Shown here piece by piece: positions 1,507 through 8,103 of a DNA stretch of 64,000 nt. The DNA lies in the NCBI RefSeq assembly GCF_018399035.1, contig NZ_CP073760.1:4288269-4352268 (forward strand). Direction: 5' to 3'. Origin of the DNA: Thiocapsa sp. (GTDB lineage: Bacteria > Pseudomonadota > Gammaproteobacteria > Chromatiales > Chromatiaceae). The first letter of the stretch is position 1, and each line of letters opens with the position of its first letter. Under the pieces are notes generated by a model. It was not told the DNA's origin. It was given only the letters and a program-made list of their open reading frames with translations, and made no database searches. The position numbers and the translations under genes were made by a program.

Positions 1507-4500
1507 CTACTCGATCCGCGCTTTTACAGAATCGGTGTATTCAAGTTGCCTGATTTGAATCTTCGCGTTCGCTGGGTCGAGCGAGTTGACGAGTTGGTGC
1601 ATGCGACGAATCTCCGATAGGTGAGTGCTCAAGGTGTTAGAGCCGCCAACACTTGAATCATGACGACGATGCTCGTTTAGAGATTTGGCTGTATAGTGCA
1701 CTCGTCCTGGACTCGTGCAGAGCTCAATATAAAGCCGCCAGTCACCGGAGATCGTCCAATCGGGTAGCTCTTGAGCGACGGATTCGAGGGCGGTTATCAA
1801 TGGCTGACGACGGAACATGACGCTGCTGACGTTCAAAATCGAATTCTTGATCGCTAGACCCTGAAGAAGAAACTCGGAGGTCGGAACGGAAAAGTCAGAA
1901 TGATAGTCGAGATCACTCGACTCCGAGCAATATGTCGAGTAGCTGGATCCGATTCGGACTCCGTCGCTGTCGAGTTGAGCCGAGTCTGAGAAAGCGAAAA
2001 GAACATCTTCCTCACGAGCGAATACCTCCGCGAGACCACTCACGAAATTGGATGCAGCAAGATCATCCGCCTCGGCGATCCAAACAAGATCGCCCTGAGC
2101 GAGTCGAATACCCTTCGACCATTGTCTGAACACTGAGCCTGAGTTCTTGGAGTTAAGCTCAAGTCGAATATCGCGCTGATGATGGTCTGCGATCCTTTCT
2201 ATCGTTTCAACGCTATCGTCCGTCGAAGAGTCGTCCAATACGATAATCTCGTAGATGGGGTAGTCTTGTCGGAGAATGCTGCCGAGTCGTTCCTGTAAGT
2301 AACGCGCATAATTATAGTTTGGTACGATCACGGAGACTCGGAGTAATCGAGGGTCGAGAGCTCGCAGCAAAGCCCAGCCATAGGAAGGGAAGTCAAAATC
2401 GGATCGGGCTCGCAGGGCGCGCTTTTCTCGGCGAGTCGGGTCGGCGAGATCTTTGGTTACGACTGCGCGGAGGGCTGATGCAAGGGCGCCAATATCACCG
2501 ATGTTGGTTGCGAGTGCCCCGTTAACCGCGTCGCTTAGGATCTCACAGTGTCCGCCGGTGCCAGCGAAAGCGACGACGGGGAGACCGCATGTTAGTGCTT
2601 CAAGCACGACTGAAGGGAAGGGATCTTCTCTCGAAGTCAGCAAGAAAGCATCGGCAGCCGCATAATATTGACCGATGGACGTCGTGAAGTCGAGATGGTG
2701 AAGGTTCGTGCAGAGTGGTTGAGTCAGACGGGCTTCTTGAAAGCGCTCCTCTTGGTCGACAGCGAGCTTGCCAACCCATAGGAAGTGGAAGCGAGAATCG
2801 CTCCTTGAAACTTCTGTCGCACAGTCGACGAACCAATCGATGCCTTTGCGTAGATCACCATAGCCGGCGTTGATCACGAGCACGGCTTGGCTCGGGATGC
2901 CGAGAGTCTGTCTGACGTCACGACGTACATCGGGCTCGACGTCCAACGACTGATAGACTCCCTGCGGTAAGACAAGGCACTTTGAAGGCTCGCATGGCGC
3001 GATGGACATGAATGCCTTTCGAACGGTGTCGCAGGCGAAGACGATGCGATCGGCGTGGTGTGCCAATGCGCGAGCTGGGGAGTAGAGATCGCGCTCTTGA
3101 ATCAACTCGGGCATTTCGTGTACGAGCGAGATGACGAAAAAACCTTGCAGCTTGAGGGCTCCAGCGACTTCTCCTGTGACGACCGTGTTCGTCAGGGCCG
3201 CTTCGAAACCCGCTTGCTTGAGCTGCAACATTGTTGACTCAAAGTCTGAGAACTGGTTTGAGATAGTGAAAACGTCAGCGAACTGTCGGTAATCCGAAAC
3301 GAGATCACCGCCTTCAAGGAGCCAGATCCCGACTCGGTAACCAAACCGTCGCTTGAATAGTCGAGCGAGATGTAGGAGGAGCAATTGTGCGCCATGCTTA
3401 TGCGCATCGTGCCCGACCAAGAGTATGCTGTGTTGAGTCGTCAGGTCAGCCATAGAGGGCCTTGAAACCGCCGGGCCTTCGAGTTGGAGCAAGACCTCGC
3501 GGGTCGCATGAAGGTAGGCATAGCCATGACGTCGATCCGGCTCCAGATAGGTGCCCTCCGCCCATTCGTTCCAGGCATTGACGAAAACCAAGCGTTTTTC
3601 CGGTAGCGGAAAACCAAGGGAGCGCTTGCATGCAGCAGTCAACCACCGTGTATATTCACGGGGTGAAGCGTTCGCAAAGATACTGCCCTTAGCGTTGCGT
3701 CTAGGTGTATTGTCCCATGCGGCCATGACACCCGGAAAGAGCTCGAATGGGGAGGTGGTGCTGATCCGAGCTTCGGCCTCGTCGACGAAGGCCCGATAAT
3801 CGTATACATGTCCTTCGAAATTCGGGTTCAGTAGCTCGACATTATCCGTGATGTCGATGTGTGGGAATTGATGAGGTGGAAACTCCACTGCTGCATCGAA
3901 CCCGATCGATTCGGGCTCGACGATCCGGGGAAAGCTCAGGACGTTCACGAGATAGGGTTGGGGCATGCCCCGGTCTCTCGCATATTCCCGCCAGCGCTCG
4001 ACTGTTGCGCGAATGTCGGGAAACAATTGGGGGCGGTAGATGATCAGCAGTGGCCGCCCCTCAATCGTGATATAACGCGGATCGCGGAGTGCAGGCTCGA
4101 TATCCGCGAAGAAGGCCAAGTCATCATCCGGCGAGTGGTTTTGTGCGATGAGGACGTCCTGCTCATATCCGTCCCAACGTCGGGTCCAATTCTCGTTGGC
4201 CCAGCAAATACAAAATGGGAAATCGAGGGATGGATCCTCGAGCATCTGCTGAAGCGGCTGCTCGAGTAGTCTTTGACCGCCGAACCAATAATGGTGGTAA
4301 CAGAACCCCTGTATCCCATACCTCTTGGCGAGGCGGATCTGTTCCCGTTGCGTTTCTTTGACCCTCAGATCGTAGAAACCGAGGGCATCCGGAAACCTAG
4401 GTTGATCGTGTCCCACAAATTGCGGGACTGCCTTTGTGACATTGGTCCACTCGGTGAAACCCTTGCCCCACCAGGCATCGTTTTCAGGAATCGGGTGAAA

Positions 4501-7500: not shown

Positions 7501-8103
7501 TCGTACCTTGAAGGCACGCGGTGCGGGCGATGCGAACCAGTCTGGATTGAACCGGCGCCAGTCGTCCCAGCTTGAGCCGGCACTGTCGAGGATCTCGTCG
7601 TTGAGGCGATAGATGTCCATCGACTCCCAAAACCCTGCCTCGTTGTTGCCGTCGACCGGGGGCATGAGGTTGGAGGGTAGGTCCGCCCCGAGCCGGTTGA
7701 TCACGCGTGTAAAGGCCGAGGTTCCGCTGCGATGCATCCCGAGCACGAGGATCGCGACGCGACGCGGGGCCGTTGATGGCGCCTGCGGCGCCATGCTCGT
7801 GGGTGACATGGCGACTCGGGTAGGCGATTGGGGCTGGTTCACGCGATTTGGATCTCCATGAGTATCGCCGCGGGTCGCGGATGAGTCGTGTCTGGCATAT
7901 TCTGCGTCCGAGATCGGATCTGGATCGGGTGTGTTATCGTCCTGATCGGACACGTGCTCTGTGACTTGGCGGACCTGGCGGGCCGCTCGATTGATCCGCG
8001 CGGAGCGCTTGGACGACTGGCGCATAATTACTGTTCGGGTTTCGGCTGAAGGAGTCGCACGGTCCGGTACTCGGGAGCCGGCTCGGAGGCTTTCGATGGT
8101 CAC
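1507..8103 (-). CDS. Giant multidomain polysaccharide biosynthesis protein: sulfotransferase / coiled coil / 10x38-aa repeats / WbsX-type / GT4-like / GT2
   Basis: 2198-aa ORF. Motifs: [12 protein letters not shown] (P-loop sulfotransferase), long heptad region, [30 protein letters not shown] (WbsX hallmark), [25 protein letters not shown] (GT-B EX7E region), [24 protein letters not shown] (GT2 DxD). The true start is uncertain (GTG 8103, ATG 8025, or later). Confidence 0.85.
   Translation of the reverse strand: [2198 protein letters not shown]
4670..5810 (-). repeat. Ten diverged in-frame 114-bp (38-aa) tandem repeats inside the giant CDS
   Basis: The protein repeats [38 protein letters not shown] ten times (aa ~765-1145). 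Confidence 0.8.
6190..6696 (-). repeat. Perfect 63-bp tandem repeat array (7 identical units + one 66-bp variant) inside the coiled-coil region
   Basis: Units start at 6256, 6319, 6382, 6445, 6508, 6571 and 6634, identical by eye. Each encodes [21 protein letters not shown]. The block is bracketed by a ~160-bp direct duplication (~6097-6255 vs ~6697-6855). Confidence 0.95.

Follow-up and report, generated by a model that had tools for sequence, protein, structure and literature searches.

The locus analysed here raises the question of whether a single polypeptide can polymerise a surface polysaccharide, measure its length and end it by sulfation. The window, namely the whole 64-kb stretch of Thiocapsa sp. 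DNA that was analysed, contains an open reading frame (ORF) at positions 1507..8103 on the (-) strand. The original prediction took this ORF for a WbbB-like all-in-one polymerase, ruler and terminator of 2,198 aa, in which sulfation would be the capping chemistry. A single ORF is indeed present. However, 2,198 aa, counted from a GTG codon, is an upper limit: translation probably starts at M99 (position 7809) or M104 (position 7794), and the NCBI annotation places the protein start at M99. Residues 27-98 differ from the orthologue by 17 nonsynonymous changes against 4 synonymous ones, indicating no coding constraint. Therefore, the real protein is probably shorter (~2,095-2,100 aa). From M99 on, it is identical to QVL47858.1/WP_213501508.1; the GenBank entry QVL47858.1 is a protein of a Thiocapsa sp. 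MAG. From the N- to the C-terminus, we found a sulfotransferase (ST) fold, a coiled coil, a Trp/Arg-rich segment, ten repeats (REP) and the WbsX, GT4 and GT2 modules, so that every module of the predicted multi-module protein was recovered.

The N-terminal domain has a predicted sulfotransferase fold

The domain at residues ~115-385 (6949..7761, (-) strand) was assigned by PF13469, AF2, Foldseek and motifs. It contains GMHRSGTS (the 5'-phosphosulfate-binding loop), KDPR and RNPLEVAAS (the 3'-phosphate-binding motif). The whole Sulfotransfer_3 profile (PF13469) was aligned with the domain (profile positions 2-215/216), but the score of the window sequence itself (22.7-23.1 bits, E 1e-4) is under the Pfam cut-off of 27. 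Of the 34 homologues that were aligned, 27 match PF13469 (best E 5.8e-10) and 14 match PF00685. H124, G127, R248, P250 and S256 are invariant in alignment A1. The AF2 model of the domain has a pLDDT of 93.9, and when it was compared with the PDB by Foldseek, the best 17 fold matches were all sulfotransferases. The model and the Pfam matches of the homologues support the P-loop sulfotransferase previously placed at residues ~115-330, and the domain is predicted to be a PAPS-type sulfotransferase fold.

PAPS-dependent Sulfotransfer_3-type enzymes (tyrosylprotein sulfotransferases, the ST domains of CurM/OLS and Stf9 of mycobacteria) have this fold in common with the window ST (Foldseek probability 1.0, TM ~0.5), together with an RSGT-type 5'-phosphosulfate loop and an RNPxxxxxS 3'-phosphate motif. 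In contrast, the identity is only 14-22%, and none of the enzymes named is joined with a coiled coil and glycosyltransferases (GTs). LpsS of Sinorhizobium meliloti sulfates lipopolysaccharide (LPS), and its biological role is poorly understood (PMC12445080). Although it is an LPS sulfotransferase, LpsS belongs to the Stf0 family, stands alone and has no coiled coil. In mammals, the sulfate that HNK-1 sulfotransferase places on matriglycan stops elongation. This enzyme is a eukaryotic Golgi enzyme without a ruler, and its sequence context is unrelated to that of the window ST; the title of a study cited in PMC12514197 describes its action on the terminal sugar of this growing linear glycan.

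The coiled coil contains a perfect 63-bp tandem array

The coiled coil at residues 376-717 (5953..6978, (-) strand) was assigned from a proline-free run, heptad periodicity and AF2 helices. This run of 342 aa is the longest without proline in the protein. Hydrophobic residues recur in it with a period of 3.5 rather than 3.6 residues (z 19.5 overall; z 3.1 and 4.4 in the flanks outside the array described below), and the region matches coiled-coil-type Pfam/NCBIfam profiles (PKcGMP_CC, Rootletin and SMC). The heptad-rich coil expected at residues ~385-700 is therefore present. In the AF2 model, it forms two long helices (model residues 2-172 and 181-324); their confidence is low (pLDDT 45-70), and the monomer is broken at residues ~558-565. 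If the region forms one continuous canonical coiled coil, its length is ~51 nm.

Within the coil, TRF found a perfect 63-bp tandem array of 7.9 copies (6203..6697, (-) strand; 100% matches, score 990). Each unit encodes 21 aa, that is, three heptads. The array had been overlooked when the sequence was first read. Among Thiocapsa genomes, the copy number is 7.9, 5.6, 2.6 or none intact; a rod encoded by perfect DNA repeats that vary in number among genomes of this genus is new here. Across the family, the proline-free spacer behind the ST has a median length of 186 aa, and the period of the tandem repeats within these spacers is a multiple of 7 in 37 of 41 cases. These sequences suggest that the ST spacer evolves through length changes that preserve heptads.

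A presumed anchor segment and a large repeat family

A Trp/Arg-rich hydrophobic segment follows the coil at residues 718-765 (5809..5952, (-) strand; alignment A2, AF2 and a hydropathy scan). It is conserved in alignment A2, forms short helices in the AF2 model and is presumed to be a membrane-interface anchor. Then ten REP units occupy residues 767-1146 (4666..5805, (-) strand): they begin at residue 767 and are spaced by exactly 38 aa, in agreement with the ten 38-aa repeats noticed earlier at residues ~765-1145. REP is predicted by AF2 (pLDDT >90) to form a helical solenoid, for which neither a Pfam match nor a PDB fold match was found. It is carried by 23,860 representative proteins. REP is thus a huge unannotated repeat family, new here, which is fused almost only to glycan-assembly enzymes. 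By motif scan, a neighbouring gene of unknown function (12113..13794, (-) strand) encodes two N-terminal REP units; it has no Pfam match and is frameshifted in the window (two ORFs in different frames), and intact orthologues exist (~549 aa in relatives).

The C-terminal modules and the gene cluster

The WbsX or "GH99-like" module at residues 1194-1533 (3505..4524, (-) strand) matches PF14307 with E 4.4e-136 (profile positions 1-349/350). The NCBI name of this domain is "glycoside hydrolase family 99-like", and the module has no sequence relative in the PDB. The GT4 (GT-B) module at residues ~1560-1910 (2374..3426, (-) strand) contains Glycos_transf_1 at residues 1728-1887 (E 3e-20); it matches PF00534 and PF13692 (E ~1e-21) and, weakly in its N-terminal half, PF13439. 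The GT2 (GT-A) module at residues ~1924-2160 (1624..2334, (-) strand) matches PF00535 at residues 1924-2048 (E 6.8e-23). All three modules that had been called glycosyltransferase-like are therefore matched by Pfam, but WbsX is a putative glycosyltransferase by its Pfam name only. In Burkholderia gladioli, a "wbsX" gene of >1,454 aa in a Wzm/Wzt O-antigen cluster is required for LPS-dependent phage infection (PMC13391952); its product is possibly a relative of the window protein.

As predicted, Wzm and Wzt are encoded in the same cluster. Wzm (ABC-2 permease; PF01061, E 1e-16) lies at 16683..17537 and Wzt, a nucleotide-binding protein of 327 aa from M25, at 17549..18532, both on the (+) strand. 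The 61-aa tail of Wzt consists of a Pro/Ala linker and then a DUF29-like helical fragment. The expectation that this Wzt has no carbohydrate-binding C-domain was borne out, with no Wzt_C match even at E 0.1, and Wzt_C-like sequence is absent from the whole window. A divergently transcribed gene of the cluster (8722..10929, (+) strand), syntenic in L001 and L002, encodes a GT2+GT4 protein of 735 aa, and a GT-C (PMT_2-like) protein and another GT4 of 1,131 aa are encoded nearby. Immediately downstream of the ORF, a gene at 1..1370 ((-) strand) encodes a second sulfotransferase with an AlgX-like SGNH domain (PF00685, E 5e-22; PF16822, E 1e-7). It is cut off by the window start (orthologues, 566-574 aa) and had escaped notice before. 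In orthologous loci, a sulfatase is also found downstream of the ORF orthologue. The window contains no PAPS-synthesis gene, and neither a WaaL ligase nor an initiating phosphoglycosyltransferase was found among the window ORFs scanned.

The ST-coil head is widespread and modular

At least 584 species genomes encode the ST-coil head, as a WbdD-like protein of its own or in fusions with varied polymerases. In all of the best 120 homologues, an N-terminal ST is followed by a spacer and then by polymerase modules. In Thiocapsa C3-sup, an 88%-identical ST and coil, the anchor segment and REP are fused to RgpF+GT2+GT4 in the same locus frame; the Wzt encoded there is 98% identical. In other relatives the head is fused to 2xGT2, and many members, of 520-690 aa, stand alone and consist of ST, coil and anchor. 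A Wzt-type nucleotide-binding protein is encoded within 10 kb in 15 of the 41 loci with full flanks. Only 4 of ~19 evaluable family loci with a nearby Wzt have a Wzt_C module; roughly three quarters do not. These four loci belong to distant lineages, namely Bordetella bronchialis, Leptolyngbya, an alphaproteobacterial MAG and a Thermodesulfobacteriota MAG; in each of them, the gene directly upstream of the ST-coil gene encodes a Wzt that matches Pfam Wzt_C (E 1e-21 to 1e-24). The B. bronchialis relative is surrounded by rml genes, and its cluster is O-antigen-like.

Comparison with known rulers and terminators

The hallmark of the terminator strategy is an extended coiled coil that bears the terminating enzyme distally (PMC11231755). 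WbbB of Klebsiella pneumoniae O12 / Raoultella terrigena resembles the window protein in that a single polypeptide of a Wzm/Wzt pathway starts with a chain-end enzyme, continues as an extended coil and carries its GTs C-terminally (PMC11231755). In contrast, its polymerase families are not WbsX, GT4 and GT2, and the O12 Wzt has the carbohydrate-binding module that the window Wzt lacks; the window protein has an extra ten-unit REP solenoid and its coil is a perfect tandem array. The terminator of WbbB is a beta-Kdo glycosyltransferase (GT99), whereas the window protein has a sulfotransferase fold.

WbdD (E. coli O9a/O8, Klebsiella O3/O5) likewise carries its catalytic head distally on a coiled-coil ruler, and its C-terminal region is membrane-proximal, a layout matched by the stand-alone relatives. 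In the E. coli O9a cluster, the genes run wzm-wzt-wbdD; similarly, the ST-coil gene follows wzt(CBM) in the four loci above. However, the WbdD head is a kinase and methyltransferase (phosphomethyl or methyl cap), and WbdD has no polymerase modules. ORF6 of K. pneumoniae O7 consists of a methyltransferase-kinase, a coiled coil and 2xGT2 (PMC11231755). In the relatives L044 and L047, which consist of ST, coiled coil and 2xGT2 and each adjoin a Wzt with Wzt_C, the layout is unchanged but the head, with its chemistry, is swapped; the polymerase set of the window protein differs as well. None of the papers in the collection searched describes a sulfotransferase terminator, and the original prediction likewise could point to no characterised sulfotransferase-capped example.

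Proposed function and alternatives

On balance, we favour the idea that the ORF encodes a WbbB-like machine that assembles, as one polypeptide, a polysaccharide exported by Wzm/Wzt, most likely O antigen. The WbsX, GT4 and GT2 modules would extend a lipid-linked chain at the cytoplasmic face of the inner membrane, where the Trp/Arg-rich segment would hold them, and the REP solenoid may dock further cluster enzymes, such as the neighbour with the same repeat. The ~50-nm coiled coil would keep the PAPS-dependent sulfotransferase off the membrane, only chains reaching this distal active site would be sulfated at the non-reducing end, and the terminal sulfate would block further extension. Because the ST would be reached only by long enough chains, coil length would set chain length. 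In Thiocapsa, the coil would grow or shrink in whole 63-bp units (~3.1 nm), each change preserving the reading frame and heptad register.

Every structural element of the predicted machine, the WbbB order and the presence of Wzm/Wzt in the cluster were found, which partly supports the prediction; chain-end capping by sulfation is putative. The WbbB-like reading is weakened because the window Wzt and most Wzt proteins of the family lack the carbohydrate-binding module, which is described as present in all terminated systems (PMC11231755). The sub-threshold Pfam score of the window ST, the low AF2 confidence in the coil and the absence of a PAPS-synthesis gene from the window also count against it. 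Moreover, the clusters encode more than one sulfotransferase and the orthologous loci a sulfatase, so that sulfate could decorate the chain along its length. The ST would then sulfate internal residues, the coil would only oligomerise and organise a multi-enzyme complex, and length would be set otherwise, perhaps by the ratio of transporter to polymerase, as it is in Klebsiella O2a. The Wzt proteins without the module fit this idea, as do Klebsiella O1, in which a terminal modification exists without gating export, and O2a, in which length is controlled without a terminator (PMC11231755). We consider it rather unlikely: a decorating enzyme is expected near the polymerase, yet in hundreds of species the ST always lies behind a heptad spacer whose length changes preserve heptads. 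The pairing of the head gene with a Wzt_C-bearing Wzt in four loci and the WbdD-like stand-alone proteins also argue against decoration.

The exported polymer might instead be capsule-like, an exopolysaccharide or S-layer-anchoring; this alternative bears on the product alone and fits either capping or decoration. The lack of a ligase and an initiating enzyme among the scanned ORFs and the nearby GT-C protein and 1,131-aa GT4 would fit such a polymer. However, loci that have Wzm/Wzt but no KpsE/KpsD-type or KpsS/KpsC-type genes are typically those of O polysaccharides, and the surroundings of the B. bronchialis relative likewise make a product other than O antigen improbable. Finally, two other public versions of the gene have indels within the array (P0001/P0121, with compensating frameshifts, and L002, split into 648-aa and 1,610-aa calls), and all 21 differences between the window and L002 are confined to 6320-6526; a false fusion or a truly interrupted gene due to a mis-assembled array is nevertheless very improbable, since the window sequence and QVL47858.1 are both in frame and identical, the total length agrees with L002 (7,600 vs 7,601 nt), the orthologue P0123 is continuous, and this uninterrupted architecture is shared by more than 100 homologues from many phyla.

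For the family, the best explanation, although not proven, is that the WbbB/WbdD-like ST-coil proteins are an uncharacterised form, very widespread among bacteria, of the "molecular ruler" for surface-polysaccharide length.

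Results

A sulfotransferase-like domain had been predicted at the N-terminus of the large ORF (window 1507-8103 (-)), and Pfam, sequence alignment, AlphaFold2 (AF2) and Foldseek place a sulfotransferase fold at aa ~115-385. The domain matched Sulfotransfer_3 (PF13469) from end to end with 22.7-23.1 bits. Because this score falls short of the Pfam cut-off (27), the significant HMM match proposed as a check in the original prediction was only borderline for the window sequence. The fold was settled by profile matches among 34 aligned homologous domains, by motifs, by the AF2 model and by fold matches. 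In the alignment, PF13469 matched 27 of the 34 domains (E <= 0.01; best E 5.8e-10) and PF00685 matched 14; relatives such as those at loci L044 (31.2 bits) and L045 (28.2 bits) exceed the PF13469 cut-off. The 5'-phosphosulfate motif GMHRSGTS and the 3'-phosphate motif RNPLEVAxS are invariant or nearly so in the 34 relatives, as is KDPR in the aligned homologues, and the RNPxxxxxS of the domain profile was aligned to the 3'-phosphate-binding motif of SULT7A1. The AF2 model of the domain has a pLDDT of 93.9. Its 17 top Foldseek matches in the PDB (E 6e-7 to 6e-4) were sulfotransferases without exception, including the OLS and CurM sulfotransferase domains, tyrosylprotein sulfotransferases and Stf9. 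A PDB sequence search with the domain alone gave no match, and Pfam found no GT99, kinase or methyltransferase match in aa 1-400. From the predicted fold and the motifs, we conclude that the N-terminal domain is a putative PAPS-type sulfotransferase. No PAPS-synthesis genes were present among the window ORFs scanned. In Bordetella bronchialis (locus L003, 22272-24581), an inositol-monophosphatase-family gene and a PAPS-reductase-family gene lie at most 10 kb from the gene encoding sulfotransferase, coil and WbsX. The former is possibly CysQ-like, its PAP-phosphatase role being suggested by its family, and the pair fits a need for PAPS and PAP handling.

The sulfotransferase domain is followed by a coiled coil (aa 376-717). 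These 342 aa form the longest run without proline in the protein, and A, Q, L, E and R are abundant. The hydrophobic period of the coil is 3.5 residues, not 3.6, with z values of 19.5 for the whole coil, inflated by repeats, and 3.1 and 4.4 in two non-repeat flanks. AF2 modelled the coil as two long helices with one break at pLDDT 45-70 in a monomer model; low values are expected because an oligomeric coil was modelled as a single chain. The heptad-rich coil read from the translation was borne out. The rise of a canonical coiled coil is ~0.148 nm per residue, and the coil would span ~51 nm if it is continuous and canonical. A perfect 63-bp tandem array of 7.9 copies (window 6203-6697) lies inside the coil. 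One unit encodes 21 aa, exactly three heptads; therefore, a change in copy number disturbs neither the reading frame nor the heptad register. Among proteins with a sulfotransferase domain and a coil (ST-coil proteins), the median length of the proline-free spacer is 186 aa (interquartile range 131-247), and the 342 aa of the window protein rank 189th of 205. Tandem repeats occur in the spacers of 41 ST-coil proteins, with a period that is a multiple of 7 in 37 of them.

Beyond the coil, a Trp/Arg-rich hydrophobic segment (aa 718-765) is conserved in relatives, and the ten expected 38-aa repeats are present at aa 767-1146 (window 4666-5805 (-)). Three glycosyltransferase-like modules had been proposed further on. 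The GT4 module (aa 1728-1887, the C-terminal half by Pfam; E 3e-20; PF00534 72.9 bits, PF13692 73.6 bits) and the GT2 module (aa 1924-2048; E 7e-23; PF00535 81.9 bits) match their profiles above cut-off. The WbsX module (aa 1194-1533), a putative glycosyltransferase, matches PF14307 over positions 1-349 of 350 (E 4.4e-136). No PDB sequence relative was found for WbsX, and a literature search on WbsX, GH99-like and PF14307 returned nothing biochemical.

In the AF2 model, each 38-aa repeat is predicted to form three short helices (pLDDT >90), and the units stack as a solenoid. The repeat has no Pfam model, and Foldseek with the model of coil and repeats gave no match in the PDB (best E 1.7). It is carried by 23,860 representative proteins (E <= 1e-3). 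The partner domains in 46 sampled carriers were almost only glycan-assembly enzymes and include GT2, GT4, WbsX, RgpF, methyltransferases, WsaF and pyruvyl transferase. Such glycan pathways are known to form multi-enzyme complexes, and the repeat may have a role in docking or targeting. A gene of unknown function at window 12113-13794 (-), without a Pfam match, also begins with two repeat units. It is split into two frames in the window by a frameshift between ~13662 and 13549; its relatives, of 543-557 aa, are intact in L001, L002 and the Thiocapsa C3-sup locus (L006).

A family search with the full-length query returned 1,066 relatives (E <= 1e-10), and all of the best 120 have an N-terminal sulfotransferase, a spacer and polymerase modules in this order. 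We had considered that the methyltransferase domains of some homologues replace the sulfotransferase. This was rejected, because these are extra C-terminal domains and all 120 mapped homologues, methyltransferase-bearing ones included, retain the N-terminal sulfotransferase. The sulfotransferase profile matches at least 4,825 protein clusters, with relatives in at least 584 species-level genomes. Together these cover Alpha-, Beta- and Gammaproteobacteria, cyanobacteria, Acidobacteriota, Planctomycetota and Bacteroidota, and the names given at source are only 'sulfotransferase family protein' or 'hypothetical'. Two layouts were observed. Stand-alone proteins (520-690 aa), an arrangement like that of WbdD, consist of sulfotransferase, coil and a basic/hydrophobic segment, often with a single C-terminal 38-aa unit. 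In the fusions, the polymerase sets include WbsX+GT4+GT2, RgpF+GT2+GT4, two GT2 domains and methyltransferase+GT2. In Thiocapsa C3-sup, an 88%-identical sulfotransferase stands on a different polymerase in the same locus frame and adjoins a 98%-identical Wzt. In the window, the G+C content steps within the ORF at ~6000, from 0.62-0.69 in sulfotransferase and coil to 0.51-0.58 in the remainder (0.48-0.54 in the downstream gene), which suggests that the gene is a mosaic and that its polymerase part has been exchanged. Because of the swapped polymerase in C3-sup and this G+C step, the N-terminal head (sulfotransferase and coil) and the polymerase part appear to behave as exchangeable modules.

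Ruler-terminator systems have been described as marked by a coiled coil that carries a terminator at its distal end; length control by such a ruler is documented for methyl, methylphosphate and Kdo caps, in enterobacterial examples only, and a Wzt module is present in all terminated examples (PMC11231755). The large ORF shares with WbbB- and WbdD-type proteins the extended coil between a distal enzyme and the membrane-proximal or polymerase part. Its distal enzyme occupies the equivalent position, but has a sulfotransferase fold without homology to their terminators. As in those systems, and as had been predicted, an ABC transporter is encoded in the same cluster, with Wzm (ABC-2 permease) at window 16683-17537 and Wzt (327 aa from Met25) at 17549-18532. 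A GT2+GT4 protein, a weak GT8-like protein, an FkbM-like methyltransferase and an unknown protein are also members of the cluster.

In contrast to WbbB- and WbdD-type systems, the window Wzt lacks the C-terminal cap-reading module, in agreement with the original prediction: PF14524 gave no match at E 0.1, and the tail is only 61 aa. No stand-alone Wzt_C-like module was detected in the 64-kb window by tblastn and an HMM from four relatives. The tail consists of a Pro/Ala-rich linker and a fragment that looks like the beginning of DUF29; the last ~40 residues (window 18410-18532 (+)) align with DUF29 positions 1-43 (E 1.7e-6), and the 98%-identical Wzt of C3-sup has the same weak match. A Wzt-type protein is encoded nearby in 15 of 41 ST-coil loci with full 10-kb flanks. 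A Wzt bearing Pfam Wzt_C lies directly upstream of the ST-coil gene in four loci, from Bordetella bronchialis, Leptolyngbya, an alphaproteobacterial MAG and a Thermodesulfobacteriota MAG (L003, L044, L047, L069), whereas Wzt lacks a C-terminal extension in ~13 ST-coil loci. Only a minority of family members have the cap-reading module, and it is absent in the window. Most ST-coil systems would then export their chains with no classical Wzt carbohydrate-binding checkpoint, which would imply that the cap is recognised differently or is not checked.

Taken together, we consider it moderately probable that the protein is a WbbB-like machine, in which the distal sulfotransferase would cap the chain and the length of the coil would set the chain length. 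Of the all-in-one reading with a sulfate cap, the coil with a distal terminator-like enzyme held, and the Wzt module of the known systems was not found. The main rival is that the sulfotransferase decorates internal residues and the coil is a scaffold only. It is supported by a Wzt without a carbohydrate-binding module and by an extra sulfotransferase downstream. The latter is fused to an AlgX-like SGNH domain (window 1-1370 (-); Sulfotransfer_1, E 5e-22), begins 136 bp downstream of the large ORF and runs off the window start; its orthologues have 566-574 aa. Yet a long heptad spacer is conserved in the ST-coil family, WbdD-like stand-alone forms exist, and the four loci named pair the ST-coil gene with a Wzt_C-bearing Wzt; we regard this rival as rather unlikely. 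The product may be an O antigen or a different exported glycan. Downstream of the second sulfotransferase, orthologous loci encode a 952-aa protein with two GT2 domains, a sulfatase, a GT2, a pyruvyl transferase and a methyltransferase. A single copy of the JUMPstart/ops element GGCGGTAG is present in the window, within the large ORF, at chance level.

Several other genes of the window were recorded. Beyond UbiB/SCP2 genes, a 1,131-aa protein (24655-28050 (+)) with a C-terminal GT4 and ~800 N-terminal residues without assignment adjoins a PMT_2/ArnT-like GT-C protein (28275-29777 (-)); these may belong to a second glycan locus. An AAA_21 (AbiEii-like) ATPase (41218-42579 (-)) and an ISAZ013-type DDE transposase (44327-45295 (+)) sit amid housekeeping genes (glycine cleavage system, leucyl-tRNA synthetase).

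As assembled, the large ORF comprises 2,198 codons from a GTG in a single frame. From Met99 on, it is identical to GenBank QVL47858.1 / WP_213501508.1, a 2,100-aa protein from a Thiocapsa sp. MAG named 'glycoside hydrolase family 99-like domain-containing protein'. Compared with the ~90%-identical orthologue P0123 (locus L001), 17 changes in codons 27-98 are nonsynonymous and 4 are synonymous, with an even spread across the three codon positions, and the sulfotransferase domain contains 25 and 40, respectively, with a strong third-position bias. Met104 is conserved in P0123; Met99 is not. Therefore, the true start is probably Met99 or Met104, and this doubt leaves the main finding unaffected. 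An assembly artefact behind the ORF is very improbable. Of the 21 differences over 7.6 kb between the window and L002, another assembly of this population, every one falls inside the 63-bp array, and a further version of the gene (P0001/P0121) has compensating frameshifts within it. The L002 array equals the window array in length. These differences look like assembly noise in the repeats. P0124 (1,610 aa) was at one point taken as a strain with two repeat units. This was rejected, since its contig, L002, has the window's array length, and indels within that array simply interrupt the gene.

The number of 63-bp units differs among Thiocapsa. The window lineage has 7.9 copies, and the total length matches L002. 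Of a homologous unit, Thiocapsa C4-3m has 5.6 copies (L088 1986-2338; TRF) and N5-Cardenillas 2.6 (L087 1848-2011); C3-sup also has 5.6 copies (from six 21-aa units in its protein). The C4-3m and N5-Cardenillas genes are otherwise closely related (same 90%-identity cluster). The L001 orthologue has no intact array, and its coil is 179 aa (537 bp) shorter. This short-coil sequence is exactly the product expected from collapse of a window-like array, and shorter arrays may be repeat collapse in short-read assemblies. It is conceivable, though doubtful, that the coil is a natural length dial, in which slippage or recombination would shift the copy number and neighbouring Thiocapsa strains would make sulfate-capped polysaccharide of quantised lengths. 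The variation would then possibly also exist among cells of one population.

Discussion

The large ORF resembles WbbB, WbdD and Klebsiella O7 ORF6 functionally. Because the terminator domains are not homologous and the window Wzt lacks the cap-reading module, we file it by analogy as a protein that would work like these systems and not as a member of their families. LpsS, a known LPS sulfotransferase, belongs to a different family (Stf0), and the Aeromonas salmonicida cluster contains only a small stand-alone sulfotransferase-domain protein adjoining its WbbB. Our literature search found no paper linking a sulfotransferase to a coiled-coil terminator; an earlier mention of sulfotransferase-coil proteins may exist.

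The sulfotransferase-tipped coil protein is widespread and uncharacterised, with an unusual repeat-built putative ruler. Cultured carriers (Bordetella bronchialis, Cereibacter azotoformans, Mesorhizobium, Sphingobium, Leptolyngbya) make direct tests possible. The 38-aa repeat defines a very large unannotated family on glycan-assembly enzymes and is a candidate docking module for multi-enzyme complexes. If a sulfotransferase does tip a ruler, a fourth cap chemistry would join methyl, methylphosphate and Kdo, and the strategy would prove much more common, with at least 584 species-level genomes carrying the head domain and at least 4,825 protein clusters matching it. The family bears on the question of whether a ruler-terminator system needs a cap-reading transporter module, and on whether natural variation in repeat number tunes polysaccharide length. 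A true length dial would make the array a contingency locus for the length of the glycan.
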